Positions 22,539-44,126 are shown, numbered from the stretch's first letter. The stretch: DNA of 64,000 bases from Candidatus Aalborgicola defluviihabitans (GCA_016705575.1 JADIXX010000003.1:788500-852499); one strand, 5' to 3'. Numbers and translations: made by a program. The notes: generated by a model from the letters alone, not told the origin.

Positions 22539-22671
22539 ATGCCAGTTGGCTCCACATGACCGATTGAGTGTCGGGTTGGCTCTCAACGCATTGGCTGTTT
22601 GGCCCATGTTCGCTTGACACCTGACGGGACTCGACCACAAACTGCCGTTCGGAAAACCTCTTGAGTAGACG

Positions 22672-22896: not shown

Positions 22897-23304
22897 TTGA
22901 CCGCTTTGCCCTCGACGCTACTCATGGTATGGGCTCGTTGCTGACTTCCATGATCAAATTCTGAGCATTTGCAATCTGCCAATTCATGATCCACAATTTT
23001 TCACAGGACCTGTTTACGCGGCACCCACCAGCGACCGCTATCCAGCAGGCACTTTTACTTGTATTCCCGTTGCGTGACTCCAACTGGCAGCTTTGATCGT
23101 CCACAAGTGCTTCTTGACAGTGGTCCGCACCGCTGAAGACTCAATATGACTGTAAAGGGTTGGATGAATATTTAGTGCCGATTTGGATCGTCGTCGCAGT
23201 TTCTAGCTGCGAAATAGTAGCCTCGGCTACCGTCCACACTTCAAGAAGCGCATTTCCGATCGTATTACTCAAGCAGCAGAATCACACAAAACGAGCTTAC
23301 AACC

Positions 23305-23787: not shown

Positions 23788-23812
23788 GCGGGCTGCGAAG
23801 GTAACTGTAAGA

Positions 23813-24583
23813 TTAACGCTTGGGCGCCACCATCGAAAACCAAGCGCCCTGTGGATCCTGACAGTTGACCGTAAACATGGGACCCGGCACCTCATGCGGT
23901 CCATTGACTACCTTGCCGCCCGCCTTGTTCGTGCGTTCAATGGCGTCATCGATGGATTCCACATTGAAGTAATACGCCCAGAACGGTTTTGGCATTTCGG
24001 GCATCTTGGTCATCATGCCGCCTACCGGTTCGCCGCCTGTGGCAAAGAGGCGATAGATACCCATTGGGCCCATGTCCATGTCTCGACTTTGGGTCCAGCC
24101 AAATATTTCAAAATACCAATCAAACGCCTTCAGGCCGTCCACCGCATGTAGTTCATTCCAGCCTACCAAGCCGGGTGTCATGGGTGCGGCGCTGGGCATG
24201 GGCTCGCTGGGGTGGGGTTTGAAAATAATGAAAACCGCGCCCTGTGGATCGGCAGCGAGGGCGAATCTTCCTACGTTGGGGATGTCGGCGGCAGGGTGAA
24301 TGATGGCGCCACCGTGCGACAGGATGCGGTCTGCGCAACCGTCAACATCGTCGACCGCAATATGGCCCTGCCAGCAAGCTGGCGCGCCGCGATCACAGGC
24401 GTCCGGTGGAATAGCCATGATGCCGCCGACGCCAACGGTGCCAGCCGACACGACGGTGTAGTCCTCGTTGCCAGGGAAGGATTGCATGTTCCATCCGATC
24501 ACCTGTGCGTAGAAGGTTTTGGCTGCCTCCACGTCCGTGGTGATCAAGTCGTGCCAAATAAAGGGGGAGGATTTCGTTGTCAT
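23813..24583 (-). CDS. VOC-family (glyoxalase/bleomycin-resistance fold) protein, two repeats
   Basis: Two VOC modules starting FIWHDLITTDVEAAKTFYAQVIGW and VGWNELHAVDGLKAFDWYFEIFGW. Confidence 0.8.
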   Translation of the reverse strand: MTTKSSPFIWHDLITTDVEAAKTFYAQVIGWNMQSFPGNEDYTVVSAGTVGVGGIMAIPPDACDRGAPACWQGHIAVDDVDGCADRILSHGGAIIHPAADIPNVGRFALAADPQGAVFIIFKPHPSEPMPSAAPMTPGLVGWNELHAVDGLKAFDWYFEIFGWTQSRDMDMGPMGIYRLFATGGEPVGGMMTKMPEMPKPFWAYYFNVESIDDAIERTNKAGGKVVNGPHEVPGPMFTVNCQDPQGAWFSMVAPKR

Positions 24584-24607
24584 GGTTTAGCTTCCTTTAG
24601 GTTGTTG

Positions 24608-25492
24608 TCAGTTCGACGGGCCACGCACCGCTGCCTCAATCTTGGCGACGTCGATCTTGCGCATCTCCATCATCGCCGTGAACGCGCGTTTTGCGATTTC
24701 ACCGCCCTTGGTCATTGCATCCGTCAGTGCGCGCGGTGTGATTTGCCACGAAAGCCCCCATTTGTCTTTGCACCAGCCGCACGCGCTCTCAGTGCCGCCA
24801 TTGCCCACGATCGCGTCCCAATACTTGTCTGTCTCCGCTTGGTCATCGGTGGCAATCTGAAACGAGAATGCCTCGTTCTGTTTGAACATACTCCCGCCGT
24901 TAAGTCCCATACACGGTATGCCACACACCGTGAATTGAACGGTCAAGACCTGGCCCGCCTTGCCGCCCGGAAAGTCAGCGGGCGCGCGGTGCACCGCGCC
25001 GACGCTGCTGTCAGGAAATGTGCGAGCGTAAAAGTGTGCTGCTTCTTCTGCATCACATTCGTACCAAAGGCAAATGGTGTTCTTCTTTATGGTGTTGATA
25101 GCAGACTCATCCATCCACATGGCTCCCCAAACGTGCCCGTCGGGATCAGTGAAATCGCGACCGTACATAAAGCCATGATCTTGGACTGGATTTATATCGG
25201 AGGTTCCACCGTTTTCCGAGGCCGCAACGTTCATCGCATCTACACTTTCGCGTGAATCACAAGACACATTCAGCGCCACCTCGCTAGATGTATGCGGCGG
25301 AATGGGGCGCGTCGTAAACGTACGCCACTTAGCGTGGGTCAAAAGCATTACATTGATGGACTCGCTTAACACCATGAGTGCTGCTGTGTCGTCCGTGAAC
25401 TGCGCGTTGTTGATAAATCCGAGGGCGGAGTAAAAGGCTTTTGACCGTTGAATATCGGCAACAGGCAAGCTAATGGTGATTGTTCGGGACAT
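24608..25492 (-). CDS. VOC-fold protein fused to a PhnB/3-demethylubiquinone-methyltransferase-like domain
   Basis: N-terminal glyoxalase-like module (ISLPVADIQRSKAFYSALGF). The C-terminal module has ICLWYECDAEEAAHFY...FTVCGIPCMGLNGG...DKYWDAIVGNGGTESACGWCKDKWGLSWQI. Confidence 0.7.
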   Translation of the reverse strand: MSRTITISLPVADIQRSKAFYSALGFINNAQFTDDTAALMVLSESINVMLLTHAKWRTFTTRPIPPHTSSEVALNVSCDSRESVDAMNVAASENGGTSDINPVQDHGFMYGRDFTDPDGHVWGAMWMDESAINTIKKNTICLWYECDAEEAAHFYARTFPDSSVGAVHRAPADFPGGKAGQVLTVQFTVCGIPCMGLNGGSMFKQNEAFSFQIATDDQAETDKYWDAIVGNGGTESACGWCKDKWGLSWQITPRALTDAMTKGGEIAKRAFTAMMEMRKIDVAKIEAAVRGPSN

Positions 25493-25527
25493 GTATATCT
25501 CCTTTTGAATGTGAAGCTGTCGAGTTG

Positions 25528-25872
25528 TTACACCAAAGCAAGTTCACGCACGGGTCTGACTTCAATGCTGCCGTACTGGGCAGGCGGAATCTTGGACGCC
25601 ACGGCCACCGCCTCGTTGAGGTCTTTGGCGTCAATTAAGTAGAAACCCGCGAGCTGTTCCTTGGTCTCGGCAAAGGGGCCATCTGTCAGAGACATTTGGC
25701 CGTTACGCACGCGAACTGTGGTGGCTGTTCCTACAGGATGCAGTGGCTCGGCCGCAAGCATTCGGCCACTGGCTGCTAACTGTTCGGCAAATGCAAAACA
25801 CGTTGCGTCCGGGCAGGCACTCCAGTTTTCTTGTGAGAGATAAACGAGACACAAATATTTCATGGCGTGCAC
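25528..25872 (-). CDS. YciI-family (DGPF) protein
   Basis: DGPFAETKEQLAGFYLID motif, 114 aa. Confidence 0.8.
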   Translation of the reverse strand: MHAMKYLCLVYLSQENWSACPDATCFAFAEQLAASGRMLAAEPLHPVGTATTVRVRNGQMSLTDGPFAETKEQLAGFYLIDAKDLNEAVAVASKIPPAQYGSIEVRPVRELALV

Positions 25873-25896
25873 CTTAAGTTGTTTGAGCGCGGGTCT

Positions 25897-26250
25897 TCAA
25901 GCTTCGACAGTCATGTCAAAACCACCGTAAATCAGTCGCTTACCGTCAAAGGGCATGGGGTTGGTTTCTGGTGACAGGCGTGGGTCCTGCATGACCTTTT
26001 CCCAAGCCAGATCGCGCACGGCTTTTGACGGCCAGGTGATCCACGAGAAAACGACGGTTTCGTCATCTTTGCGTTGCACGGCCATAGGGAAGGAAGTCAC
26101 TTTGCCTTCAGGCACATCGCTCCCCCAGCATTCAACCACTTGCAATGCACCGTGGTCCTTAAATACAACCGCTCCCAGCTTGGCGTGGGCAATGTATTTT
26201 TCTTTATTGGCCGAGGGTACGGCGCAAACAAATCCGTCTATGTAGAGCAT
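25897..26250 (-). CDS. DUF1428-family protein
   Basis: MLYIDGFVCAVP start, KDHGALQVVECWGSDVPEGKVTSF, ~117 aa. ATG confirmed at 26248-26250. Confidence 0.7.
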   Translation of the reverse strand: MLYIDGFVCAVPSANKEKYIAHAKLGAVVFKDHGALQVVECWGSDVPEGKVTSFPMAVQRKDDETVVFSWITWPSKAVRDLAWEKVMQDPRLSPETNPMPFDGKRLIYGGFDMTVEA

Positions 26251-26321
26251 GTCTATATTCCTCAAGTAATGCAGTCAGTTTAAAAGCACGGCTTCCCATG
26301 CTTAGGCCTCGTCCCCTATTA

Positions 26322-26348
26322 GTCGAATGGGAAACGAGCAATTCGACA
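26322..26348 (-). promoter_or_regulatory. Candidate ECF-type promoter (TGTCGA-N16-TCGAC) upstream of the DUF1428/YciI/VOC genes
   Basis: The minus strand reads GGGTGTCGAATTGCTCGTTTCCCATTCGACTAAT, about 70 nt upstream of the DUF1428 ATG. It resembles the TGTCGA(-35)/CGAC(-10) motif I recall being proposed for ECF42-group sigma factors. The two boxes also form a 7-bp inverted repeat. Confidence 0.4.
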
Positions 26349-26380
26349 CCCGTTCAAAAAAAATTTCAAGCTATCTTTTT

Positions 26381-27676
26381 TTACTGTGCAGGCGTTGACA
26401 AAAGGGCTTCGATGGCATCGATTCTCAGCTGTAAAAACCGCTGCTCAGAACCCTGCTGCGTCAATGAAAATGCTCGCCGGTAGGCAGGTAGCGCTTCAGG
26501 GTAGCGGGCTAGTCGGCGGTAGAGGTCGGCCTGTGCAGCATGCGCCAAGTGGTAGTTGCGCAGGGTCTCGTCTTGCAAAAGCGCATTCACCAGGGGCAAG
26601 GCTGCTGCGGGTCCGTCACGCATGGCGATGGCCACTGCCCTGTTAAGCGCCACGACGGGGTTGGGGTCTAGTTGCAGCAGAGCGTCATACAAGCCGACAA
26701 TTTGGGGCCAGTCGGTGGACACAGACGTGGGCGCTTCTGCATGTACCGCAGAAATGGCGGCCTGTAGGCTGTAGGCACCAAAGCGCTGCGTGCGCAACGC
26801 CTGCTCTGCCAACACGCAGCCTTCGGCAATCTGCTCGGCATTCCACAGTGCACGGTCTTGCTCGTTCAGTGGAATCAAGTCGTATGTAGCGTTCATGCGC
26901 GCCGCGCGGCGGGATTCGTGCAGCAGCATCAGCGCCAGCAAGCCCATAATTTCGGCTTGGTCTGGTAGCAGGTCGCGTAACAAGCGGGCCAGTCGAATTG
27001 CCTCCTGGGACAGCTCGCTGCGCATGAGCATTGGTCCGCTGGATGCGGAATATCCTTCGTTAAAGACCAAATAAATAACCCGTAATACGCTGGCCAATCG
27101 TTCAGGAAGCTCTGACACCTCGGGCACATGGTAAGGAATGCGCGCGTCGCGAATTTTGGCTTTGGCGCGCACGATGCGCTGAGCCAGCGTGGGTGCAGGC
27201 AGCAAGAAAGCGCGGGCAATTTCCTCGGTGGTTAGCCCGCACACTTCGCGCAGGGTCAGGGCCACTTGCGCATCAATGGCCAGACTGGGGTGGCAGCAGG
27301 TAAAAACCAAGCGCAGGCGGTCGTCTTCCAGTGGTTCATGTTCATCCCAGGCGGGCGCTTCGTCGGGTATGGCTTCGGCTTGCTCGCTTGATTCGTCCCA
27401 CGCCGTAAAGCGCCGGTTGCGCCGAATGCTGTCTATCGCCTTAAAGCGCCCCGCTGATACGAGCCAGGCTAGCGGATTTGCTGGCATGCCTTGCGAAGGC
27501 CATTGCTCAATAGCCGATTTGAAGGCGTCGTGCAGGGCCTCTTCAGCCAGATCCAAGTCGCCCAATAGACGTGCCAAAGCGGCAAAAACCTGCCGTGATG
27601 ACTGGCGGTAGAGCTGGTCTATGGCGGTGTTTTGGTGAGTAGAACGCATGCTCAGTTGCATCATTTCGCGGCGCAA
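26381..27676 (-). CDS. ECF sigma factor with a long TPR-like C-terminal extension (ECF42-type)
   Basis: Sigma region 2 (LAEEALHDAFKSAIEQWP...NPLAWLVSAGRFKAIDSIRR) and region 4 (LREVCGLTTEEIARAFLLPAPTLAQRIVRAKAKI), followed by ~200 aa of helical repeats. It is adjacent to YciI/DGPF genes. Several in-frame Met starts lie within the first 10 codons. Confidence 0.85.
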   Translation of the reverse strand: MRREMMQLSMRSTHQNTAIDQLYRQSSRQVFAALARLLGDLDLAEEALHDAFKSAIEQWPSQGMPANPLAWLVSAGRFKAIDSIRRNRRFTAWDESSEQAEAIPDEAPAWDEHEPLEDDRLRLVFTCCHPSLAIDAQVALTLREVCGLTTEEIARAFLLPAPTLAQRIVRAKAKIRDARIPYHVPEVSELPERLASVLRVIYLVFNEGYSASSGPMLMRSELSQEAIRLARLLRDLLPDQAEIMGLLALMLLHESRRAARMNATYDLIPLNEQDRALWNAEQIAEGCVLAEQALRTQRFGAYSLQAAISAVHAEAPTSVSTDWPQIVGLYDALLQLDPNPVVALNRAVAIAMRDGPAAALPLVNALLQDETLRNYHLAHAAQADLYRRLARYPEALPAYRRAFSLTQQGSEQRFLQLRIDAIEALLSTPAQ

Positions 27677-28051
27677 TCATGAAATTCTGCCGCTTGCAAG
27701 TTAGTATCCCATTAAATATCAGCGTGAGAAAAGCCCACGCCCCATCGAATGGATGGACTGCGTTATCCGTCTGACTAAGACCGCGGCATACCCACCCCAT
27801 AAATGTGTGGAACCAATGACTGCTTGCTGGGTGTGAGAATCGACAGGCTCAAGTCGACCTTGGGTCGGATGCTGGTGTACGTGACACCGATCTGTAGGTC
27901 AGCTCCTTGCCAGGCACTGGCGATTGATGCCGCCGAAATCCGAACAATTCCCATGTCCCGCCGCTGTCGGTCACCAATGCTGCGTTTGCAATGGTTCGAC
28001 GTGGCAGCGAATTGAGTCGGTTGAAGGCATTGCTGAAAGAAGTGCCCATTG

Positions 28052-28390
28052 TCATTCGCCAGTTGTCTTGTATGCCGGGCGCAGTCTGGTTTTTTTAACG
28101 ATGCCTGACGGTGCAAACAGAACGACAAATTCAGCGCGATCGGCCCCCGGTTCAGCCGCTCTGTCCCTGTAAACCCAGACGGCATAGCCACTGTCAAAAC
28201 GGATCTCGGTTGCGGGGCCCAGTGTAGCCATCGTTTCGGCTTGTGTGGTCTGCCCCACCACGATTGCGTCTCGCGCATCTTGCATCGATATACCAGTGTT
28301 ACGGAACGTGGGCACTGTGTCGCTCGCGCGCAGACTGCCACAGGCGACGAGCAGGCGACGCAGTGTCAGATAGGTTTGCATTGTGCTCAT
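28052..28390 (-). CDS. Small outer-membrane lipoprotein (SmpA/OmlA/BamE-like)
   Basis: Lipobox LLVACGS, then ~90 aa (MATLGPATEIRFDSGYAVWVYRD). Its start overlaps the upstream gene's stop by 4 nt. Confidence 0.5.
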   Translation of the reverse strand: MSTMQTYLTLRRLLVACGSLRASDTVPTFRNTGISMQDARDAIVVGQTTQAETMATLGPATEIRFDSGYAVWVYRDRAAEPGADRAEFVVLFAPSGIVKKTRLRPAYKTTGE

Positions 28391-29232
28391 TCGACGTCCA
28401 TGTATTCAAACAGCACCAAAGTGTCGTCCGGCCATGTGCGGTCGCCCAGCGGCAAAACGTAGGTACGGTCCACCAGAACTTCGCAATCGCAATACGGTAG
28501 CGTGTCGTGCAAGCTCGCATCGTCGCTGGCATTGGCGTAGAGTTTGTCGATGGAGAGGACTTGCCGCCGCTCACCAGCGAGCAGGGTTACGCTGAACAAG
28601 GGCCGGTCGGCAAAGAAGAGGTATTGCGGTGCGGGCTTGTCACAATACGCCGGGGTGTCGAACAACGCGCCGACCAATCCACCGATCAAGCTGCGGCTGT
28701 TGGAAATCAGGCCTGCTTCCATCCCCACTTTGCATTCCAGGCGCAGATCCCCCAGGCGCCGGGTATCGGGCGGTAGACCCGGTGTCCGTATGTCGGTGCG
28801 CCAAGTCATGCTCAGCGCCCTGCGATTAGGAACGACCTGAGCACCTTCTAACAGTGCCAGCGCATTGCGCGGCAACGCAAAGGTATGGTTCACATCGATG
28901 GGCACCACGAAGTCCACAGTGTCACCGATCACCGCCAATGTGATGGTGTTCATATCAGTCCCTTTTTTGCGAGGTAGCAGCTTGAAACGCAGTTCCGTAT
29001 TGGGCGACATAGCGTATTGCTGCTGGAAGATATCCATGCCCCTGAGCATTTTGCGATAAGACTTTTCAACCGGATTGGGATTTGCCTTGGCTGAAACCGT
29101 CACAGAGGGCATCCGCTCCGTGCGTGCGCCTTGTTGCGCAAACGTACCCATGCAGGTGGCTGCAAACGCAAGCGCGCAGCATACACGCGCAACTGTGTGC
29201 CGCAGGGCTACGGGGTATTGTGCGGCTTGCAT
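28387..29232 (-). CDS. Hypothetical secreted protein
   Basis: Signal peptide (VARVCCALAFAATCMGTFAQQ) with the start taken at MQAAQY (ATG 29232). No family recognised. Confidence 0.45.
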   Translation of the reverse strand: MQAAQYPVALRHTVARVCCALAFAATCMGTFAQQGARTERMPSVTVSAKANPNPVEKSYRKMLRGMDIFQQQYAMSPNTELRFKLLPRKKGTDMNTITLAVIGDTVDFVVPIDVNHTFALPRNALALLEGAQVVPNRRALSMTWRTDIRTPGLPPDTRRLGDLRLECKVGMEAGLISNSRSLIGGLVGALFDTPAYCDKPAPQYLFFADRPLFSVTLLAGERRQVLSIDKLYANASDDASLHDTLPYCDCEVLVDRTYVLPLGDRTWPDDTLVLFEYMDVE

Positions 29233-29525
29233 GGTGAAGTAAGGGTAAACGTCCTCAACTATGCGTCTAGTGCTCACCCAACGCAGTGCGGTACCGCACC
29301 AATCGAACCATCATTGCGGTTAGGCATTGACGCACCTAGACATTAAGCTATCCGCGCCGCTGTCTTGATTTGCATCCGTCTCGCCAAATCGCATGTCCGG
29401 CCAATTCCGACCACAAAGTTTTTCACTCGGCCCATTCAAGCGATTGCGAGTCTCCTCTTCTCGCTTCTTCTCTTCCTCAGTTTCGGGCTTAGATCCAGGT
29501 GGCCGCGGTTTGGCTTGTGGTGGCG

Positions 29526-31418
29526 CTACGGCCCCCCCCTGGCCCCTGCGGCTTTGGGCGCGTCAGCTCTTGCCGCCTCCGCATGAGCAGTCTCAGCCTT
29601 GGCTGCTTCATTTCTTACCGCTTCGCTTTTTGCTGCTTCAGCCTTCGCAGTTGCGGCACGGCGGGTCTCGGCTCTCGCCAAATCTGCCTTTACGGATTCT
29701 GCCCGCGCGCTCGCTGAACGTGCAGCCTCGACTTTGGCTGCATCAGCGCTAGAAGCACCTGCCTTGGCGGCTTCTGCCTTGCGGGCTTCGCGCGCCTTGT
29801 CAACTGGCGGTGCTGCCGGTGGGAGAGCGGTCAGCAGGGGCGCAAGTATGGCGGTCACCACGCTGACCTTGGGCACGGCGACGGCTGGTACGGCGGGCAA
29901 GAGCCGCTTGCGCTGGTCTTCGTCGATGGGTGTGCCGGGTTTTGCGGCCAATTGCTTTTGCTGGGCCACGAAGGCGATCGGTGGGGTAGGTGGCGTGGTG
30001 CGCGCAATAAATGCCCTCTCACCGTGCGGCGGCCTGGCACCTGCCTGCGGGGCGCCGCCATGCACGCTTTTCTGCACTGGTACTATGGCTGCGACCGGGA
30101 TGACCGGCGCGCTGATTGCGGCCGCGATGGAGACCGGCAAGGCCGCACGTGCTACCGGCTGCGACTGCACGAACGTCTGCGTTGGCACCGCGACGATAGC
30201 CCCGTTCACCTTCTGGTTGACGTACACCACGTTCGTGATATTCGTGGTGTTTTTCACGATAGTCGTACTGCGGTTGATCACGGTGGTGTTGTAAACATTG
30301 GTGATGACCGCAGGTGTGATCACCGGATTGCTGCGATTGACGTTGTCGAAATAGCTGCGACTCAACGGAGAGGACGGTCGATAGACCTCGCGTGGAGCGA
30401 GAGGGAACCAGCCGACTTCGGCGGCGGCACCGCCGACCGATAGCGCCACCCGGAAATTGTTGCCACCCACAAAGGCGACCAGCGCCGGCGCATAGACCGC
30501 CTGTTCGCGAGCCGGACGAGGGACCCAACCCCATGTGCCGGAGATGTTGGCCCAGCGCCCGTAGTGCGACACCGCGAACCCCCAAGGTGCGTCGTCCACC
30601 CAGGTCCATCCCCAAGGATCGACCCAAGCCCAATGGCCGTCTCGATACGGCGTCTAGCCAGCGGCCACCCTGTTCGGTGTCCACACATAGCCGTATTTCG
30701 GATCGCTACGCCAGGTGCCGTTGCCGTCGAGATCCTGATACCCGACGACGTCTGGCGAAACATAGCGCGCGGACGGCGAGTCATCGTCGCTGCGGTCGCG
30801 GGTGCGCGCTCAACTGTCGAAATCGTCATCCGGCTGCGCCACCAGCGTTTCGTAGTCTGAGTGGTCGGTCCCGTGGAAGCGGTAGCCACGCTTCGGATCG
30901 ACCGTATATGACGCACCTTCTCCGTATACCTCACCGCGCCCGTTGTGTACGCGGACAGCGGTCGCGCTGCCATCGGGATCGACATCGATCCGGTAATCGC
31001 CGATCTGGCGCAGAGTGAACGCCAGATTTGGGGTATCAATCTCTAAGCTCTGGCTCACCCCGATGCGGCGCACGTGTACGTTGAGCGACCCTTGCAGAAG
31101 TTGCACCTGCGTGATGCGGTCGTCGAAATTGAGCAGGGTCACATCGGTCAGCTCGCCCAATCGAATCGACGCGCCACCAATCTGCAATTCGGCGCGTGAA
31201 TTCGAATCCGCCCACAAGCGGTCCCCGGTCGTGAGAGGCCGGTTAACTACGGCCTGCACCCAATCAGGCTGACTGCTCGGCGAGAAACTTACAACGCCAC
31301 TGATGTAGCCCAAACGTGCCGCGCCTAAAGGTGGTTCCGCAGCAGCCAAACCACTCAGCGTAAGCACCAATATGCCGGCAAAGGCACGCAGTGAACGGGA
31401 GGTACTCGATTGGGTCAT
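29526..31418 (-). pseudogene. FecR-domain / DUF6600-like secreted protein with two in-frame stop codons
   Basis: One continuous reading frame joins ORF 30810..31490 (signal peptide plus FecR-like domain: GDRLWADSNSRAELQIGGASIRL) to ORF 29526..30599 (DDAPWGFAVSHYGRW..., Ala/Glu/Lys-rich tail). It is interrupted only by TGA at 30810-30812 and TAG at 30654-30656. Both fall where Trp is expected (DFDS*ARTRDR; AAG*TPYRDGHWAWVDPWGWTW). Confidence 0.8.
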
Positions 31419-31707
31419 ACCGATTCCAATCGTTTCGATGGCCGCTGGCAGAACGCAGCAACCTGTTGGGAGCCTACGTGCGTGACACATGCCGTGACTG
31501 TGCGTTAGTGAACGCTCGGCTGTACTGGCTCAGCGTCTGCTGCAGCATTCCTGGAAAATGGCTTCTGGGGTCTAAAACCGGAGGTCGGGTAACAGCTCCA
31601 TGGCCTTGTATGTATTCGCAGCGCCATGTTAGTTGGCACCGGAATACTGCGTTCGTTCACCGACGAGATGATGTTCTTACCTAAGTTGGTTTACACCGGA
31701 TGACGTG

Positions 31708-32467
31708 CTAAAACAGTTTGCCAACCAGCATGGTCAGGCCAGTAGAGATGGACCAATCGGGCACATCGTTGCGGGTACTTGGAAAACCGGCCCCAAAACG
31801 GGGGGGGGGGGGGGGTGGGGGGGGGGGGGAAAGGGGGGGGGGGGGGTGCCCGGGCGCCCCCGCGCGGGGGGCGGGAACGCCCCCCCCCCCCCCCCGTGGG
31901 GGGGGGGGGGGGGGCCGGGGTGAGGTGGCCCAGAATTGGGTCCTCTTGACCAAAGCGGGTCATACCAAGGTTGATGTCGGTGTGGTAGTTACCTACGTCG
32001 GCACTATAAATTCCGGTAATTGAATAGTCGGACTGGCCACTGCTGATGGCACCGGTGCCGGTCGGCAATGTGGTACCGAGTTCCAGACCGAAGGCCGATT
32101 TGTCATCGACTGCGAAGCGACGTTTCAGAACAATTGCACTGTCCCCACCACCGTTAATGCGCTGTCCACCGTCATCAGTCTGTGCAACCCATGCTTCGCC
32201 GCTCCAGCGGATGCCCCAGTCCGGCGTCAAGGCTAGCTTCAAAGTGTAGGGCAGGCTGTCACGGCGCACGTTGCCCCCAGCGCCGGTGCGCAAGCCACCA
32301 GCCTCCAACTCCAGCCAACCGGGTTGAGACAGCGCAGCAGGCGTTGATACACTGGGCCGGTAAGGCACAGCACTGGGCTCATCAGCCTGCGCCCACGCTG
32401 TATTTAGCACGAATGCCAAAAGGCAGCTAAACAGTGCGCCATGGTATTTACGACATTTGAAATGCAT
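31708..32467 (-). pseudogene. Outer-membrane beta-barrel protein (MetA-pathway/transporter-like OMP family) interrupted by a G/C homopolymer tract
   Basis: Signal peptide (LFSCLLAFVLNTAWAQA), then alternating beta-strand sequence (GWLELEAGG, LPYTLKLALTPDWGIRWSGEAW, FGLELGTTLP). After the tract a different frame supplies a typical OMP end ...WSISTGLTMLVGKLF-stop at 31708. Confidence 0.7.
31800..31920. repeat. Extreme G/C homopolymer tract (G16-T-G13-AAA-G14 ... C16-GT-G17-CC-G4)
   Basis: Read directly from the sequence at 31800-31920. It lies inside the OMP gene and translates to poly-Pro/poly-Gly in every frame. Confidence 0.95.
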
Positions 32468-32836
32468 AGAAATCCTTGCTGGGTTGACGCGTTTGCCCCG
32501 GCTGATTCTAAGGTGACGGGCGGTGTTGCACGGATGAGGGTTTTGTCGTGAACAACGCAAATCAATTTTGCGCCAAACCTCCCCAAAAATTGGTCCACTG
32601 ACTGGTGAAGTCATTGAGCCGGATAACGGGGTGGCCTGGCTGTCGGTCGTTGGATTTGCCTTGTTCTTGTTAGCCTGCGTGTGGCAGCGAACGCATCTCG
32701 GAGGACTTTCCCGCTATTCTCTGGCTTTGCCGAATTGGTGCAGTCCGTTTGGCGCCAGTCTAGGCCGGAGCTGCGAGAAGTCTCTTTCGCATCGCCGCTG
32801 CTCAACGCTTGTGCTGCCTCAACTGAAAACGACACC

Positions 32837-36564: not shown

Positions 36565-37683
36565 TCAGCGCAAACGCGCCATAAAGCGGCGATCAATCCA
36601 GTCCTTGAGCCACCACACCCATCGACCCTGCGCACTGAAGCGGCCCCAGGTGCCTATGGCGAATGGGTCACCACAGGCAATCAAATTCAGAGTGGCCTGC
36701 GGGGGCTTGTGCGGCTGCAGTGCTGACCCGCGCGTGGCGGCAGCAAGGTTGTAAGCCAATGCCGGGCCGGCGCGCACGGCATAGACGCCGCTGCGTGCCA
36801 GGGTTTGGTCCATGCGCGTGCTTACATCGCCCGCTGCAAATACCCGTTGGTGGCTGGTGGAGCGCTGGTACTCATCGACTGCGATGAAGCCGGATTCGTC
36901 CAGTGCCAGGCCACTGCTTACCAGCCACGCAGGGGCATTGGTGCCGGTAGCCAGCAGCGCCACATTACAGGGCAGTGCGGCGCCACTGCGCAAATAGACG
37001 GCTTCGGCATCGATGGAGGTAGCGGCTTCCTGCACTATCGTGATCCCGCGCTGCGTCAGAGCCAACTGCAAGCGCCGCTGAACTGCCATGGGGTAGTTGG
37101 CGCCGGGTGGCGCACTCCCCGACAACAAGTTGACTGCTGCTTGAGGCATGCGGTGGCGCAGCGCGAATGCCAACTCGATACCGCCAGCGCCAGCACCAAT
37201 CACGGCGATGCGAAGTGCCTGCTTGCGCCCCATCTGAGCCACCTTGGGCCACAGCGAAGTGAAGTGTTCAATGGGCCGCACAAACAGGCCGTGTTCCCGG
37301 GAGCCTGGCAGCGCTTGTTCGGCACGGTCACGATCTTGCACCGGACCGGTATTGACCGACAACCAGTCATAGTGCAGTGTGCTGCCATCGGCGAGCGCAA
37401 TGCTTTGTTGCTCTGCATCCAATGCAACTGCACTGGTCTGCAGCCATCGAACGCCACTGCGCCGCACCAACGGTTCGAGCGGAATCACGCAGTCTTCCAG
37501 CGTGTAATGACCGGCGATAAACCCGGGCACCATGCCGGAGTACATCTGGCGCGGATAGGGTGACACTAACGTGATCTGAACACCCGGCAAAGGCTGCTCG
37601 GTCAATTGCACCAATACCTGCACGTGCGCGTGCCCTGCGCCCAGCAGTACAAGTTGTTGACTACCCGACGGACGGGCTGTCAT
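36565..37683 (-). CDS. FAD-dependent pyridine-nucleotide-disulfide-family oxidoreductase of the type found fused N-terminally to SelD in other bacteria
   Basis: LVLLGAGHAHVQVL dinucleotide fold, YSGMVPG, a second fold IAVIGAGAGGIE, and VFAAGDV. Its ATG overlaps the DUF3047 stop (ATGA, 37680-37683). Confidence 0.7.
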   Translation of the reverse strand: MTARPSGSQQLVLLGAGHAHVQVLVQLTEQPLPGVQITLVSPYPRQMYSGMVPGFIAGHYTLEDCVIPLEPLVRRSGVRWLQTSAVALDAEQQSIALADGSTLHYDWLSVNTGPVQDRDRAEQALPGSREHGLFVRPIEHFTSLWPKVAQMGRKQALRIAVIGAGAGGIELAFALRHRMPQAAVNLLSGSAPPGANYPMAVQRRLQLALTQRGITIVQEAATSIDAEAVYLRSGAALPCNVALLATGTNAPAWLVSSGLALDESGFIAVDEYQRSTSHQRVFAAGDVSTRMDQTLARSGVYAVRAGPALAYNLAAATRGSALQPHKPPQATLNLIACGDPFAIGTWGRFSAQGRWVWWLKDWIDRRFMARLR

Positions 37684-38444
37684 CGGGTTGGCGTCAATGA
37701 AATATCTCCGACATAGCCCAGGCTGCTTTGGCCGGTGTTGTCAGAATCAGCGCCCACCACAATCGCAAGCAACGGCGGCACGGATTCGCTCTCTGCGCCA
37801 AATGTCTTCAGAAAATCTGCGTGCAAGTCACGCGTATGGCTGACCCATTGTTGTAGCGGACTGGCGGGCCCGGATGGGTTGCTGGCAGAGTCCACCACCA
37901 CAAATCTGACACGACTGGTGTAGGCATTGGGCAATTCGGAGCCCACCGGTAACTTTTGGTCCCACACGTAGCACAGGGTTGCGGCTGGCAAATACTCACC
38001 GCTGGCACTGCGGGCCAAGCGTAGCAGGTTGCGCTCTATAAAGCCGAGCCGTTCCAGCGGCATGTCAAACATGGCGCAGACCTTGAGCGCAGTGTCGTCA
38101 CCCACTTTCTTGCGCAGGTCAGCCAATTCAATCGGTTGGTCCAGGCGCCAGCGCCAAGTCAGGGTGCCCGCCGAGGTCTTGGGCGGCAAGGCGTGGCTGG
38201 CAGTTCCGTAGGAATGGTCGGTTCGCAGGCGCATCACACGATCTGGCCCGAGCGTGACGATGTCAATCTGAGCCAACGGTACTTTATTGCCCGGCAGGCC
38301 AACAACCCGCCACGGCGTCGGCAGAGTGGCCGCAGAAGCGCCTGAGAAGGGTGCAATGCCATGGGTTGCAGGCACAGCGTCTTGCGCCGAATGCGCGGCG
38401 CTGATCGATGCGATAAGCAGGCCTACAGCCCCGATGCGGTTCAA
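37680..38444 (-). CDS. DUF3047-domain secreted protein
   Basis: LTWRWRLDQPIELADLRKKVGDDTALKVCAMFD, LCYVWDQKLP and VGADSDNTGQSSLGYVGDISL match my recollection of DUF3047. Using TTG 38444 gives a clean signal peptide (NRIGAVGLLIASISAAHSA) and overlaps the upstream TGA by 2 nt. The ORF as listed extends to 38513. Confidence 0.68.
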   Translation of the reverse strand: MNRIGAVGLLIASISAAHSAQDAVPATHGIAPFSGASAATLPTPWRVVGLPGNKVPLAQIDIVTLGPDRVMRLRTDHSYGTASHALPPKTSAGTLTWRWRLDQPIELADLRKKVGDDTALKVCAMFDMPLERLGFIERNLLRLARSASGEYLPAATLCYVWDQKLPVGSELPNAYTSRVRFVVVDSASNPSGPASPLQQWVSHTRDLHADFLKTFGAESESVPPLLAIVVGADSDNTGQSSLGYVGDISLTPTR

Positions 38445-40660
38445 TGGCGCCGCCAGTTGTGAAACTTGCGCACCCACTCCAGCAGAACCAGCGGCTGGTG
38501 CGCGCGCTTCCATTCTCCAGCGGCGTATTTGTTAGCCTCGGAAAGAGTGGGGTAAGTATGGATCGTGCCCAGTATTTTGTTCAGTCCCAGGCCGTGTTTC
38601 ATGGCCAGCACGTATTCCGCCAGCAGGTCACCAGCGTGCGTGCCGACTATGGTGACACCCAGAATCTTGTCTTTGCCCGGGACGGTCAGCACCTTCACAA
38701 ACCCTTGCGTCTCGCTGTCAGCAATGGCGCGGTCCAGATCGTTCATGCCGTAGTGGGTCAGCTCGTAGGCAATGCCATGCTCCTTGGCTTCTTGCTCGTT
38801 CAATCCGACGCGCGCAACCTCGGGGTCGGTAAAGGTAGCCCAAGGAATGACGCTGTAGTCGACCGTGAATTTTTTGAAGTCACCAAACAACGCGTTGACC
38901 GCCGCATACCAGGCTTGGTGCGCGGCGGTGTGGGTGAACTGATAGGGCCCGGCCACGTCGCCCGCGGCAAAAATATTGGGGTAGATGGTTTGCAGGTATT
39001 CGTTGGTCTCGACCGTTTTGTGGGTCGGTATGCCGAGTTCTTCAAGTCCGTAGCCACTGAGTCGGGCGGAGCGGCCCACGGCACACAGCAACTGGTCAAA
39101 CTCAATGCGCAGTTCCGTGCCGGCATGCTCAACCACCAATACTTTGGTTTTGCCGTCGCCGTTGCCCTTGTCGGGGTCAGTGCCATCACAGCGCAGCGCC
39201 TTGTGCGCGGTCAGCACCTGCACACCGTCGGCCCGCAGCGAGGCGGTGACCAGCTCCGACACGTCTTCGTCTTCCCGTGTCATGAGACGTGGTGCCATCT
39301 CTACCTGCGTGACGGCCGAGCCTAGACGCGCAAAGCTTTGCGCCAACTCGCACCCAATAGGTCCACCGCCCAACACCACCAAGCGCTTGGGAATTTCGTC
39401 AAGCTGTGCAAAACGCTCCCATAGGGTGTCGCTCGTGACATAGCCCACCGCGTCCAGACCCGGCAACGGCGGCACAAACGGCCGGGCGCCAGCGGCAATG
39501 ACGATGCTGCGGGTGGTCAGGCGCACGACCCGCGGCGGGGCATGGTCCGCATTCAGGGTGATTTCCACCGTCCACGGGTTGATGATTTTGGCGTAGCCTT
39601 GCAGCACCTCCACGCCCAGTGCGGTGTAGCGCTCAATACTGTCGTGGGGTTCAATAGCAGCGATTACCGCTTGGATGCGCTGCATGATTTCTTTGAATGA
39701 AAATAGCCGGTAGCCCTCGTCCGCTTTACATAGCCCGCTATCCAAACCATAGCGTTTTGCATGTTGCATCTGGTGCGCCAGTTTGGCGCTTCTGATCAGG
39801 GCCTTGCTGGGCACGCAACCGTAGTTCAGGCAGTCGCCCCCCATTTTGTGGGCTTCGACCAGCGTGACCTTGGCTTTGACAGCCGCCGCGATGTAGGCTG
39901 AGACCAGTCCTCCGGCACCGCCACCGATCACGATCAAGTTGCGGTCAAAAGACTTTGGTTTGCTTGCGGCCCAGCGTGCATAGACTTTTCGACGCTGCAC
40001 GGCGTCCATCATCTTGCGTGCAATCAGCGGAAACAACCCCAACAGCACAAACGAGCCCAACAAGCCGGGGCTAACAACGTCTTTCAGCGATTGAATCTGC
40101 GCCAGTTGCGTGCCCGCATTCACATACACCGCTGTGCCTGCCAGCATGCCCAACTGGCTGACCCAATAGAAAGTCCGAGCCCGCATGGTGGTCAAACCCA
40201 TGGCCAGATTGATGACGAAGAAAGGTACCACCGGAATCAGCCGCAAGCCAAAGAGATAAAACGCGCCATCGCGCTGCACGCCTTTGTCGATGGCCGCCAG
40301 GCGGGTGGCAAATCGCGCCTGCACCCAATCACGCAGCAAAAACCGCGCTGCCAGAAATGCCAGTGTGGCACCGATGGTTGATGCAAAGGACACCAGCAAC
40401 AGCCCCCAGCCGAGTCCAAAAATGGCACCTCCGGCCAGCGTCAGGATGGTGGCACCCGGAAAGGACAGCGCGGTGGCTGCGACATAGACGACAAAGAAAC
40501 CCAGCGCTACCGTCCAGGGAGATTGGGCGTGCAGCGCGGATAGTTGCGCCTGACACTGGCGCAAAGCATCCAGGCTCAGGTACTGGTGCAGGTCGAATGC
40601 GTAGAAGAGGACTATGGCGCTTGCTAGCGCGGCCACAGCCAGAAATTTCTTGGTATTCAT
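38441..40660 (-). CDS. Fusion: TVP38/TMEM64 (DedA-superfamily) membrane domain + flavoprotein disulfide reductase (mercuric-reductase/dihydrolipoamide-dehydrogenase-like)
   Basis: ~230-aa polytopic N-terminus, then VIGGGAGGLVSA, the redox-active pair GGDCLNYGCVPSK, VVLGGGPIGCE, AAGDV, and a dimerisation-domain end (HTYPTLSE). No NmerA/HMA metal-binding domain is seen. Confidence 0.88.
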   Translation of the reverse strand: MNTKKFLAVAALASAIVLFYAFDLHQYLSLDALRQCQAQLSALHAQSPWTVALGFFVVYVAATALSFPGATILTLAGGAIFGLGWGLLLVSFASTIGATLAFLAARFLLRDWVQARFATRLAAIDKGVQRDGAFYLFGLRLIPVVPFFVINLAMGLTTMRARTFYWVSQLGMLAGTAVYVNAGTQLAQIQSLKDVVSPGLLGSFVLLGLFPLIARKMMDAVQRRKVYARWAASKPKSFDRNLIVIGGGAGGLVSAYIAAAVKAKVTLVEAHKMGGDCLNYGCVPSKALIRSAKLAHQMQHAKRYGLDSGLCKADEGYRLFSFKEIMQRIQAVIAAIEPHDSIERYTALGVEVLQGYAKIINPWTVEITLNADHAPPRVVRLTTRSIVIAAGARPFVPPLPGLDAVGYVTSDTLWERFAQLDEIPKRLVVLGGGPIGCELAQSFARLGSAVTQVEMAPRLMTREDEDVSELVTASLRADGVQVLTAHKALRCDGTDPDKGNGDGKTKVLVVEHAGTELRIEFDQLLCAVGRSARLSGYGLEELGIPTHKTVETNEYLQTIYPNIFAAGDVAGPYQFTHTAAHQAWYAAVNALFGDFKKFTVDYSVIPWATFTDPEVARVGLNEQEAKEHGIAYELTHYGMNDLDRAIADSETQGFVKVLTVPGKDKILGVTIVGTHAGDLLAEYVLAMKHGLGLNKILGTIHTYPTLSEANKYAAGEWKRAHQPLVLLEWVRKFHNWRRH

Positions 40661-40857
40661 TGCGGCGCTAAGCAGGATTGGGTCTGGATGCGATGTGGGC
40701 AACTGGTCGGTGCATTACTGCAAGTCTTACACATTCGCACAAGAGTGCATGAAAGACCTTCGGTAACACGCTTGGCAACGCGATTTACGCCCTTGTAAGA
40801 AAATACGCTCAGCAGTGACCAAGTTCTGTTCGACTCCCTAAATTCAAGAAGACAACC

Positions 40858-41745
40858 ATGATGACACAGGCACTGATTGGCGTGATTGGAGGCAGCGGCC
40901 TCTACCAGATGGATGCTCTGCAAGACGTGCAGGAACACACCATGAGCACCCCGTTCGGCGCGCCTTCTGACGTGATCGTGACCGGCCAGTTGCACGGTGT
41001 GGCGGTTGCATTTGTGGCCCGGCACGCGCGGGGCCACCGTCTGCTACCCACGGAAGTGCCTTACCGCGCCAACATCTATGCGCTCAAGATGCTGGGTGTG
41101 CGCTACGTATTGTCGGTTTCGGCCGTCGGGTCGCTGCGTGAAGACTTCAAGCCGCTGGACATGGTGCTGCCCGACCAGTTTATAGACCTGACCCGCCGTC
41201 GCGAGGGTACATTTTTTGGCCAGGGGGCGGTCGCCCATGTCTCGATGGCGCAACCGGTTTGCCCGCATACCGCTGATGCGCTTGCCCGCGCGGTGCGGAG
41301 CGTGTTGTCGGAAGAAGACCCGTCCAGCCGTGACACCATCGCGCTGCACACCTGTGGCACCTATGTTTGCATTGAAGGGCCACAGTTCTCTACCCAGGCT
41401 GAGTCGCATTGGTACCGCAGCATGGGCGCCGGGGTGATTGGTATGACCAACATGCCCGAGGCAAAATTAGCCCGCGAGGCGCAAATGGCCTATGCCACCC
41501 TGGCCATGGTGACCGACTTTGACTGCTGGCACCCGCGTGAGGCCCATGTCACCGCCAATATGGCGCTGGCCAACCTGTTGCAAAACGCGGGTCGGGCGCA
41601 GCGTGTGATGGCGCAGGCGATTCGCATGCTGGGTGCCGAGCAGCCGGACAGCCTGGCCTTTACTGCACTGCAGAGCGCACTCGTCACCCAGCCCGATGCC
41701 ATGGCACCCGAGGTGCGCGCGCGCCTTGCCGCGCTGTTGGCCTGA
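40858..41745 (+). CDS. mtnP: S-methyl-5'-thioadenosine phosphorylase
   Basis: IGVIGGSGLY, ARHARGHR, SVSAVGSL, GPQFSTQAES, GMTNMPEAKLAREA, MVTDFDCW. 295 aa. Confidence 0.9.
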   Translation: MMTQALIGVIGGSGLYQMDALQDVQEHTMSTPFGAPSDVIVTGQLHGVAVAFVARHARGHRLLPTEVPYRANIYALKMLGVRYVLSVSAVGSLREDFKPLDMVLPDQFIDLTRRREGTFFGQGAVAHVSMAQPVCPHTADALARAVRSVLSEEDPSSRDTIALHTCGTYVCIEGPQFSTQAESHWYRSMGAGVIGMTNMPEAKLAREAQMAYATLAMVTDFDCWHPREAHVTANMALANLLQNAGRAQRVMAQAIRMLGAEQPDSLAFTALQSALVTQPDAMAPEVRARLAALLA

Positions 41746-41771
41746 TCCCGCCCACTAAAACCAGAATTGCC

Positions 41772-42734
41772 ATGCACGACACCCTGCCCCTGCTGGAACG
41801 AACCCCCTTTCCCGCCATCCGCCGCACCCGGCTCGACACCCTGCAAGTTAACCTGGGTTACCAGTGCAACCAAAGCTGTCTGCACTGCCACGTCAACGCT
41901 GGACCCAACCGCACTGAAATGATGGAAGCCGACATGCTGGCACTGATTCCCCAGGTTTTGGCCGCACGCGGTATCACCACGCTGGACCTCACCGGTGGCG
42001 CGCCCGAACTCAATACCGGCTTTCGCGCACTGGTGCAGTCTGCGCGCGCACTGGGCGTGCGGGTAATAGACCGCTGCAACCTCACCATCTTGTTCGAACC
42101 CGGACAGGAAGGCTTGGCCGATTTTCTGGCCAGTCAACAGGTCGAAGTCGTGGCATCCATGCCTTGCTATTCGGCTGAAAACGTGGACCGGCAACGCGGT
42201 GACGGCGTGTTCGACAAAAGCATCGCGGCGTTGCAGCAACTCAATTCGCTGGGCTACGGCGTGGAAGGTACGGGTTTGGTGCTCAACCTGGTCTACAACC
42301 CGCAAGGCGCGTCCTTGCCGCCCAACCAGCAAACACTGCAGGCAGACTACAAACGTGAGTTGTTCGAGCACTTTGGCGTGGTCTTCAATGAACTGCTGGT
42401 ACTGACCAATATGCCGATTCAGCGATTTGGCTCGACGCTGGTATCCAAGGGCACATTCGATACCTACATGAATCTGCTCAAGAGCAGCTTTCAGCAAGGC
42501 AATCTGGCCGGAGTCATGTGCCGCAGCATGGTCAGCGTGGACTGGCAAGGCTGGTTGTCGGACTGCGACTTCAACCAGCAGTTGGGCTTGCCGCTGGGGT
42601 CTTCGGGGGTCAAGCGCCATTTGCGTGATCTGCTCAAAGCCGGTCTGGACAATCAAGCGATCCGCGTGGCCGGTCACTGCTATGGCTGCACTGCTGGCCA
42701 GGGCAGCAGTTGCGGCGGTGCGCTGGCGGCGTAA
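41772..42734 (+). CDS. Radical SAM/Cys-rich-domain protein (ArsS / rSAM-selenodomain family)
   Basis: CxxxCxxC cluster motif (GYQCNQSCLHCH) and a C-terminal Cys-rich region (VMCRSMVSVDWQGWLSDCDFN ... GHCYGCTAGQGSSCGG). There is no in-frame TGA, so this is a Cys rather than Sec version. Confidence 0.85.
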   Translation: MHDTLPLLERTPFPAIRRTRLDTLQVNLGYQCNQSCLHCHVNAGPNRTEMMEADMLALIPQVLAARGITTLDLTGGAPELNTGFRALVQSARALGVRVIDRCNLTILFEPGQEGLADFLASQQVEVVASMPCYSAENVDRQRGDGVFDKSIAALQQLNSLGYGVEGTGLVLNLVYNPQGASLPPNQQTLQADYKRELFEHFGVVFNELLVLTNMPIQRFGSTLVSKGTFDTYMNLLKSSFQQGNLAGVMCRSMVSVDWQGWLSDCDFNQQLGLPLGSSGVKRHLRDLLKAGLDNQAIRVAGHCYGCTAGQGSSCGGALAA

Positions 42735-42765
42735 ATCCGGTTCACGATCTCCCATCCGTCGCGCC

Positions 42766-43503
42766 ATGCAAGCACCTACCCCTGGCCTCACCATCATCAT
42801 GCCGGTACGCAACGAGGCACAGCGCATCGGCCCCGCCCTGCACGCATTGGCGCCCTTGCAGTTGCGTGGCGTGCAGGTGGTGGTGGTAGATGGTGGCAGT
42901 ACGGATGGCACGATGGCGTTGGCGCAGCAAGCGCTGGGGCACGACCCTGACCTCAACCCAACCAGCGCAGGCCAGCCTGGCACATCGCTAGTGCTGAGTA
43001 GTGCCGCTGGTCGCGCCTTGCAAATGAACCAGGGGGCACAGCAAGCCAACGCACCCGTATTGCTATTTCTGCATGCCGACACACAGCTCCCGCCCAACGC
43101 CGATGCGCTCGTTGCGCAGGCGCTGGCCAGCGGCGTCCGTGTGTGGGGCCGTTTTGACGTGCACATTGCTGGGCGGCCCTGGATGCTGCGGGTCATCGCT
43201 GCATGCATGAATATTCGTTCGCGCTGCACCGGCATTGCCACGGGCGATCAGGCGTTTTTCATGACACGCGCTGCTTTTGATGCGGTGGGTGGTTTCTCAA
43301 ACCAGCCCCTGATGGAGGATATTGAAATGTCCCTGCGCCTGGGGCATCTGTCTCGCCCCATCAGCCTGCGCGCAAGGGTAATCACATCGGGCCGCCGATG
43401 GGAGACGCGTGGTGTCTGGCGCACGGTGCTGCTCATGTGGCAGCTGCGGTTTGCCTACTGGCGTGGCGCAGCGCCGGATCAACTCGCCAGGCTGTACCAG
43501 TGA
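42766..43503 (+). CDS. GT2-like glycosyltransferase of the rSAM/selenodomain-associated type
   Basis: LTIIMPVRNEAQRI, VVVVDGGSTDGT, GRALQMNQGA, LLFLHADTQLP, WGRFDV, GDQAFFMTRAAFDAVGGF, LMEDIEMS, GRRWETRG. Confidence 0.8.
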   Translation: MQAPTPGLTIIMPVRNEAQRIGPALHALAPLQLRGVQVVVVDGGSTDGTMALAQQALGHDPDLNPTSAGQPGTSLVLSSAAGRALQMNQGAQQANAPVLLFLHADTQLPPNADALVAQALASGVRVWGRFDVHIAGRPWMLRVIAACMNIRSRCTGIATGDQAFFMTRAAFDAVGGFSNQPLMEDIEMSLRLGHLSRPISLRARVITSGRRWETRGVWRTVLLMWQLRFAYWRGAAPDQLARLYQ

Positions 43504-44126
43504 ACACGCTGGCTACGCCTTGCAGGTTGGTCATCTTTGCCAAGGCGCCGGTGGCTGGCGCCGTCAAGACACGCTTGATCCCGGCGCTGGGTGCGCAGGG
43601 TTCGGCCGAATTGGCGCAGCGCATGCTGTTGCAAACCCTCGCGCAGGCACTGGAGTCGGGGGCCGGATCGGTTGAGCTGTGCATGAGTCCCGCGCCCGAC
43701 GCGCCCGCGTGGCACGGCGTGGCGTTGCCCGACGGCATTGCACTCAGCGATCAGGGCGAAGGCGATTTGGGCGAACGCATGGCGCGGGCCGTGCACAGGG
43801 TCACCACCACGTTCGCGCAACCCATTGTGCTGATGGGTACCGATTGCCCCGAGCTGACCGCTACCGGTATCGCGCAGGCAGCACGCCAGCTGTTGCAACA
43901 CGACGCCGTGCTGACCCCGGTTGCCGATGGCGGTTATGTACTCATCGGCTTGCATGCACCGTGCCCTGCGCTGTTTGCTGACATGCCATGGAGCACACCG
44001 GAAGTGGCTAGAGAGACGCTGCGGCGCATGGCCGCGCTGGACCTGCGCGTGTGGCAGGCACCCATTCTGCACGATGTGGATGAACCCGCCGATCTGGTGC
44101 ACTTGACGCAGAGTGCGCCGCGCTGA
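43500..44126 (+). CDS. DUF2064 / nucleotidyltransferase-like protein of the rSAM/selenodomain-associated type
   Basis: LVIFAKAPVAGAVKTRLIPALG, QGEGDLGERM, LMGTDCPEL, PVADGGYVLIGL, MPWSTPEV, LHDVDEPADL. The GTG start overlaps the upstream stop (GTGA). Confidence 0.8.
   Translation: MNTLATPCRLVIFAKAPVAGAVKTRLIPALGAQGSAELAQRMLLQTLAQALESGAGSVELCMSPAPDAPAWHGVALPDGIALSDQGEGDLGERMARAVHRVTTTFAQPIVLMGTDCPELTATGIAQAARQLLQHDAVLTPVADGGYVLIGLHAPCPALFADMPWSTPEVARETLRRMAALDLRVWQAPILHDVDEPADLVHLTQSAPR

Follow-up and report, generated by a model that had tools for sequence, protein, structure and literature searches.

What does an ArsS-type enzyme of the radical S-adenosylmethionine (SAM) group contribute to when neither arsM nor selD is encoded nearby? 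This question is raised by a divergent locus of Candidatus Aalborgicola defluviihabitans (GCA_016705575.1, JADIXX010000003.1:788500-852499), lying in a stretch of 64,000 nucleotides that was analysed as a whole and is called the window hereafter. Seven genes at positions 36565-44126 form two operons that face away from each other, and an earlier note on this DNA had proposed that they encode an uncharacterised small-molecule pathway. We found that the two operons are one conserved unit and that orthologous clusters elsewhere carry a true arsM. The reading that we favour, with moderate confidence, is an arsenosugar-type riboside pathway without a local arsM, served by a flavoprotein/transporter module that is common to arsenic and selenium metabolism.

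Gene content and conservation of the locus

The curated cut-off of each model was used as the threshold for the profile scores of the window proteins. The locus is composed as follows:

36565-37683, minus strand: TIGR03169 flavoprotein ("N-terminal-to-SelD" family), 337 bits against a cut-off of 310
37680-38444, minus strand: DUF3047 protein, likely TTG start at 38444 (alternative ATG at 38513), Pfam score 159 bits against a cut-off of 27
38441-40660, minus strand: VTT-FDR, a TVP38/DedA VTT domain joined to a class-I flavoprotein disulfide reductase (VTT_dom, Pyr_redox_2 and Pyr_redox_dim)
40661-40857: divergent intergenic (promoter) region, 197 bp
40858-41745, plus strand: MTAP-type 5'-substituted adenosine phosphorylase, TIGR01694, 312 bits against a cut-off of 275
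41772-42734, plus strand: ArsS, a radical SAM enzyme with a DUF3641 Cys-rich domain, TIGR04167, 454 bits against 300
42766-43503, plus strand: GT2-family glycosyltransferase, TIGR04283, 252 bits against a cut-off of 182
43500-44126, plus strand: DUF2064 protein with a CofC/MobA-like nucleotidyltransferase fold, TIGR04282, 205 bits against a cut-off of 134

The family membership of all seven proteins, as called in the earlier note, was upheld by these profile searches, and its gene coordinates and overlaps held when the junctions were rechecked. The stop codon of VTT-FDR overlaps the TTG start of DUF3047 (TTGA), the DUF3047/TIGR03169 and GT2/DUF2064 junctions are ATGA and GTGA overlaps, respectively, and 26 nt separate MTAP from ArsS. 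The order ArsS-GT2-DUF2064 was confirmed, with both transferases directly after ArsS; all three members of the NCBIfam rSAM/selenodomain trio (TIGR04167, TIGR04283, TIGR04282) are thus in the window, above cut-off and in canonical order. Moreover, tblastn over the 64 kb gave no match for arsM or selD, as had been claimed, and the ArsS reading frame contains no in-frame UGA. Searches of the intergenic region 40661-40857 for a sigma-70 consensus, for Rfam families and for motifs conserved with the Polaromonas or Skiveiella loci described below all came back empty.

Conservation was assessed in 83 loci, namely 80 genome loci at ArsS homologues (61-83% identity) and 3 obtained by exact look-up, the gene content of which was scored by tblastn and all-against-all clustering; 49 of these loci, with at least 8 kb on either side of ArsS, make up a full-flank subset. 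Single loci are designated by L numbers. GT2 lies near ArsS in 62/83 loci (40/49 full-flank) and DUF2064 in 57/83 (38/49). VTT-FDR, often placed between ArsS and GT2, is found in 36/83 (26/49), TIGR03169 in 21/83 (17/49), DUF3047 in 19/83 (15/49), and MTAP, in or beside the cluster, in 14/83 (10/49). At least one gene of the minus-strand module is present in 31 of the 49 full-flank loci. Many taxa possess single co-directional operons of the form ArsS-(F15)-VTT-FDR-(DUF547/F38)-GT2-DUF2064-DUF3047-TIGR03169 (e.g., L021, L028, L036, L049, L052), and three Polaromonas loci (L003, L005, L006) and one of Candidatus Skiveiella (L004) share the divergent layout of the window. Rhodoferax AJA081-3 has the plus-strand operon alone. 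Cluster size is 7 genes in the window and reaches about 10 elsewhere. An adjacency peculiar to this one genome would have spoken against a joint pathway; instead, dozens of genomes have this set of genes around ArsS. The two operons co-occur far beyond chance, and many taxa have their genes interleaved within a single operon; the two are therefore one conserved unit.

Other genes accompany the cluster outside the window. F15, a protein of ~324 aa without a Pfam or NCBIfam match, directly follows ArsS in 15/83 loci (L019:15738-16712, L102:10996-12015 and 13 others) and was seen on Burkholderia plasmids as well; the window lacks it. In 11 loci from both ArsS and senBC contexts (e.g., L011:17806-18636, L094:9313-10014, L104:9854-10648), a DUF547 gene sits within the cluster, with VTT-FDR on one side and GT2 or DUF3047 on the other. 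An extracytoplasmic function (ECF) sigma/anti-sigma pair often adjoins ArsS clusters (L001:4427-8003, L007, L015, L018, L036, L049, L052), accompanied by a bufferin-type operon (BufA1, MbnB/DUF692, HvfC, DoxX) or a CcdA-thioredoxin pair, and these neighbours suggest control by metal or envelope-thiol stress.

Arsenic links of ArsS and the plus-strand operon

In the ArsM/ArsS arsenosugar pathway of Synechocystis sp. PCC 6803 (Cheng et al. 2021), ArsS works with ArsM to form DDMAA (5'-deoxy-5'-dimethylarsinoyl-adenosine), from which adenine is removed afterwards; dimethylarsenite is the substrate of the sole characterised member of the TIGR04167 family. The window ArsS resembles the Synechocystis enzyme in that it belongs to the same equivalog family, shares the CX3CX2C motif (CNQSCLHC) and carries the Cys-rich DUF3641 domain (181 bits). 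Five of its cysteines (C250, C265, C303, C306, C314) are invariant or nearly so in 21 diverse members, so that the motif and Cys-rich tail recognised in the earlier note are present and match family-invariant positions. As in Synechocystis, orthologous proteobacterial clusters pair ArsS with ArsM. Unlike the Synechocystis pathway, the window lacks arsM and its ArsS is embedded among MTAP, GT2, DUF2064, VTT-FDR, DUF3047 and TIGR03169. An account of the Synechocystis ArsM/ArsS arsenosugar pathway is also said to have been given by Xue and co-workers in 2019.

We asked what the lack of arsM means, as the earlier note had taken it for the mark of a pathway other than arsenosugar synthesis. This claim was not supported by comparison with orthologous clusters. 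ArsS proteins encoded in one operon with arsM share 83-85% identity with that of the window, and the Polaromonas loci L003 and L006 have a layout identical to that of the window with a true arsM as fifth plus-strand gene, whose product matches the solved Chlamydomonas ArsM (PDB 5evj, E 4e-106). Across loci, three ArsM lineages adjoin ArsS; of the two further ones, one is of the "AsSugarArsM" type (545-549 bits against a cut-off of 400) and the other is arsinothricin-ArsM-like. ArsS-ArsM fusion proteins were found in both orders. An ArsM next to or fused with ArsS is missing from the window but present in L001, L003 and L006. A neighbour-joining tree of ArsS mixes members that have an adjacent arsM with members that lack one (it adjoins 3/7 sequences of the clade to which the window belongs), and there is therefore no sign of a functional change in the window's enzyme. 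Lack of arsM, in short, gives no reason to assume chemistry without arsenic. The picocyanobacterial ArsS genes examined stand alone, and are therefore uninformative on accessory genes.

Several ArsS variants have additional parts. P0133 joins ArsS to a flavin-reductase domain and P0197 joins it to an AhpD/CMD domain, and further variants (among P0124, P0131, P0184, P0186) have long N-terminal extensions without a recognisable domain. The flavin-reductase and AhpD-like fusions show a probable need of ArsS for redox partners. The selenoneine cluster of Rhodoferax ferrireducens (L001, CP138198.1, 8684-20332) includes an ArsS-ArsM pair, with the gene order egtD, arsS, arsM, senC (a TIGR03169-SelD fusion), senB, phosphonate-type ABC transporter, senA.

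NCBI now names the trio "arsenosugar biosynthesis" proteins, the names of the two transferases being computational. The description of the locus as uncharacterised consequently fails for ArsS, which is characterised, and for the trio, which is already named, while it stands for the rest of the cluster: the MTAP, the reductase module and the selD link are additions that we did not find described for the NCBIfam trio.

A literature search found no enzyme assigned to the steps after DDMAA, i.e., adenine removal and ribose attachment to glycerol-type acceptors, and we infer that MTAP, DUF2064 and GT2 are candidates for these missing later steps. MTAP (match to PDB 4glf at E 1e-116) has the family and fold of MtnP from methionine salvage. 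In contrast to MtnP, the cluster enzyme is translationally linked to ArsS, GT2 and DUF2064 and is carried on plasmid islands, which implies a dedicated substrate, probably DDMAA. It has been recruited repeatedly, on either strand and in unrelated lineages, including Burkholderia, Acinetobacter and Cupriavidus replicons; in Cupriavidus KK10 it comes directly after DUF2064. An MTAP-GT2-DUF2064-TIGR03169 operon is carried by 49 Burkholderia plasmids, and this MTAP copy is therefore dedicated and not housekeeping. DUF2064 matches PDB 3cgx (E 8e-22) and CofC (6bwg, E 4e-4), and its predicted fold is of the CofC/nucleotide-sugar-transferase type.

Mobile versions of the cluster were also observed. 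The MTAP-GT2-DUF2064-TIGR03169 operon of the 49 Burkholderia plasmids (L102 and L103 being from B. glumae and B. thailandensis) lies on a Tn3-flanked island, which also has ArsS-F15, a further radical SAM gene and DUF547. On the Acinetobacter portensis plasmid pJNE5-X3_NDM-1, an NDM-1 plasmid, a self-contained Tn7-like island (L104, 6737-15028) comprises arsS-VTTFDR-DUF547-GT2-DUF2064-arsM and a PiT-family transporter, with mtnP alongside.

We propose that the locus may be the proteobacterial form of a pathway to 5-deoxy-5-arsinoyl-ribosides, split into two divergent operons. By homology to the characterised enzyme, ArsS would add a 5'-deoxyadenosyl radical to a trivalent methylated arsenical, giving DDMAA. 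The MTAP-type phosphorylase could then strip adenine to leave 5-arsinoyl-alpha-ribose-1-phosphate, from which DUF2064 might make a nucleotide-activated intermediate, and GT2 would move the ribosyl unit to an acceptor with inversion. Since an inverting GT2 would act on a donor derived from alpha-ribose-1-phosphate, the product would be a beta-riboside, matching natural arsenosugars in configuration. Methylation may be provided by an arsM elsewhere in the genome, or the methylated arsenic may be made by neighbouring organisms. The sequence of adenosylation, phosphorolysis, activation and transfer put forward in the earlier note fits the gene content, and the repeated recruitment of MTAP, including to plasmids, speaks for it. 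Its suggestion of a lipid acceptor, drawn from the nearby fadD, found no support, as neither fadD nor the ABC transporter keeps synteny with the cluster at any other locus.

The minus-strand module and the rest of the window

The first protein of the module, VTT-FDR, combines an N-terminal DedA/TVP38 domain (VTT_dom, 80.8 bits against a gathering score of 33.9), with about five hydrophobic segments in residues 1-220, with a reductase that has a CLNYGC redox-active pair and a His-Glu dyad. Its nearest PDB structures are MerA and LpdA, and it shares with MerA and dihydrolipoamide dehydrogenase the class-I flavoprotein disulfide reductase core and the CxxxxC redox pair. Unlike MerA, it has an N-terminal membrane domain, no NmerA domain and no C-terminal cysteine pair. 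An identity as MerA was rejected because these C-terminal cysteines are missing and because the score falls below the cut-off (347 against 454 bits). A link to selenite uptake has been reported for one DedA protein. In Synechocystis, arsM (slr0303) and a TVP38 gene (slr0305) presumably lie close together; the identities of the two genes were confirmed, their adjacency was not.

TIGR03169 has as nearest PDB structures NDH-2, sulfide:quinone reductase (SQR), FSP1 and ferredoxin reductases, and no cysteine is conserved across 25 homologues. A part for TIGR03169 in supplying electrons is suggested by the flavin-reductase and AhpD-like fusions to ArsS and by a Rieske ferredoxin-like gene next to the module in L091. 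The protein stands alone in the window, where it is neither fused nor adjacent to SelD. Elsewhere, it adjoins SelD in L004, L091, L092 and L093 and is fused to it in L001 and L094.

DUF3047 is predicted to be a periplasmic beta-sandwich protein. Its AlphaFold2 model is a beta-sandwich of good confidence, with a predicted local distance difference test (pLDDT) score of 87.6, and its N-terminus is signal-peptide-like, residues 1-27 having low pLDDT. Two cysteines and a GADSDN motif are invariant. In a fold search, TM-scores did not exceed 0.46, and there were only weak matches, to concanavalin-like folds and to those of carbohydrate-binding modules and lectins; these are so generic that no specific function follows, and a sequence search of the PDB found nothing. 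The surroundings of distant homologues on plasmids are mixed: in Phaeobacter the gene lies in a copper/thiol-redox island, in Ilyobacter with exopolysaccharide genes. A literature search returned nothing on DUF3047, TIGR03169 or the extended cluster.

The selenium link of this operon, which the earlier note had suspected, was borne out when DUF3047 homologues (57-66% identity to the window) were sampled without reference to ArsS. This gave five independent contexts, none of which has ArsS within 10 kb, in addition to plasmid records. VTTFDR-DUF3047-TIGR03169 is found with a convergent bona fide selD in L092 and L093, DUF3047-TIGR03169 lies near selD in L091, VTTFDR-DUF547-DUF3047 stands beside a TIGR03169-SelD fusion and a SenB homologue in L094, and L101 has a VTTFDR-DUF3047-TIGR03169 operon without selD. 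Overall, selD or a senB-senC pair adjoins the module in 4/5 of these contexts. A similar arrangement exists beside ArsS: in Candidatus Skiveiella danica (L004, ArsS 83% identical to the window), the minus-strand operon runs into selD and diverges from ArsS-GT2-DUF2064. In the VTT-FDR tree, versions from ArsS and selD contexts are interleaved within a Comamonadaceae clade, with the window grouping with L092 and L093, and one orthologous module therefore serves both contexts.

The locus was also compared with the selenoneine cluster SenA/SenB/SenC (Kayrouz et al. 2022): TIGR03169 corresponds to the N-terminal domain of the SenC-type SelD fusion, and VTT-FDR, DUF547 and DUF3047 adjoin senB and senC in L094. 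The window differs from that cluster in that no match to SenA, SenB or a SelD domain was found in it, and in that its glycosyltransferase is GT2 (GT-A fold) whereas SenB has a GT-B fold.

Two further observations concern the module. In the selD-terminated operon of L004 (4637-9805, VTTFDR-DUF3047-TIGR03169-selD, the selD being bona fide), a frameshift, perhaps an error of assembly, divides the TIGR03169 gene. Upstream of VTT-FDR in L093 (7062-7628) and L101 (7045-7650) lies a small gene, CDP-alcohol phosphatidyltransferase-like and translationally coupled to it, which hints at a lipid head-group connection.

We suggest that the minus-strand operon would form a membrane-associated redox/transport module consisting of VTT-FDR, the periplasmic DUF3047 and the NDH-2/ferredoxin-reductase-like TIGR03169. 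Most likely, the module takes up the metalloid or holds it in a reduced, thiol-bound state for the biosynthetic enzymes; it may also supply electrons to the radical SAM cluster.

Around the locus, FadD and the SbmA/BacA-type ABC transporter flank the genes as described in the earlier note. They and a histidine phosphatase were considered as cluster members and rejected because they do not recur around ArsS homologues. The right flank is of housekeeping nature (histidine phosphatase, ttcA, folB, SDR, PBP1A, rsgA). A minus-strand open reading frame of 583 aa (41490-43241), antisense to ArsS and GT2, is a high-GC shadow and not a gene. Within the region 22000-32600, whose GC content is lower (0.52-0.56 at 22-28 kb), are several glyoxalase-family genes, an ECF-like sigma factor with DUF6596, a FecR-like and a DUF6600 protein, and reading frames without a family match.

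Alternative explanations and significance

Several observations weigh against an arsenosugar-type pathway. The 64-kb window has no arsM, no ars resistance gene and no arsenic-responsive regulator, arsM lies within 10 kb in only about 20% of ArsS loci (10/49 full-flank), and the 49 Burkholderia plasmids carry no ArsM. The strongest independent association of the module is with selD and not with arsenic genes, and the ArsS-ArsM pair of R. ferrireducens sits inside a selenoneine cluster. Furthermore, the roles of MTAP, DUF2064, GT2 and the whole minus-strand operon are inferred throughout, and we know of no arsenosugar demonstrated in any of these heterotrophs.

The ArsS-like enzyme could instead adenosylate reduced selenium supplied by the module, and MTAP, DUF2064 and GT2 would convert the product to a 5-seleno-riboside, a new class of selenometabolite. 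The lack of arsM in the window, the adjacency of the module to selD or senBC in L004, L091, L092, L093 and L094, the kinship of TIGR03169 with SenC-type fusions, the ArsS-ArsM pair within the sen cluster of L001 and the DedA protein linked to selenite uptake are all compatible with this. However, the three true ArsM lineages and the ArsS-ArsM fusions tie the ArsS family to arsenic, its only characterised member uses dimethylarsenite, selD occurs within 10 kb of ArsS in only 3/83 loci and the window has none; we therefore judge a selenium pathway unlikely. The cluster might also handle both elements, with ArsS-MTAP-DUF2064-GT2 using selenide or methylselenol in arsM-less genomes to make ribosides derived from 5'-seleno-adenosine, and to this we likewise assign a low probability. 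If it were true, these small molecules, of selenium or of mixed arsenic/selenium type, would form a class not known before, and DUF3047, TIGR03169 and the DedA-reductase fusion would be the missing machinery that delivers selenide to SelD.

Two other explanations were considered. An arsenosugar operon could merely adjoin a selenium-assimilation module that works for a selD encoded elsewhere. The VTT-FDR and TIGR03169 of the window are indeed 70-76% identical to the selD-adjacent versions of L092 and L093, compared with 50-71% to the ArsS-adjacent Polaromonas versions, and in Rhodoferax AJA081-3 the plus-strand operon occurs by itself. But the interleaving of module genes with ArsS, GT2 and DUF2064 in single operons of many unrelated taxa and plasmids, and their presence in most full-flank ArsS loci (31/49), make such independence quite unlikely. 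It is highly improbable that the locus is a decaying remnant which lost arsM (and selD) and no longer makes its product, as might be thought from the arsM of the sister loci L003 and L006 and the selD of L004. The seven reading frames are intact and there is translational coupling, and arsM-less versions are common and retained on mobile elements. Moreover, 8 contigs, which come from several samples and two assemblies (GCA_016707335.1, GCA_049644425.1), encode an identical ArsS protein, and the whole locus is the same on all 3 contigs of sufficient span, GCA_049644425.1 among them. An arsenosugar-type pathway thus remains the reading that we favour.

While ArsS and the trio were already known, we found no description of the extended cluster, of an MTAP dedicated to it, of its mobile versions or of the module's dual association with ArsS and SelD. 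The steps from DDMAA to arsenosugars become testable with MTAP, DUF2064 and GT2 as specific candidates. Producers of complex organoarsenicals would extend to common heterotrophic Burkholderiales, including organisms of activated sludge, and mobile plasmid islands carry the cluster in Burkholderia glumae, B. thailandensis and Acinetobacter. Moreover, three orphan families, the DedA-reductase fusion, DUF3047 and TIGR03169, are given a testable context through their link to both ArsS and SelD/SenBC, which suggests a common handling of reduced arsenic and selenium.

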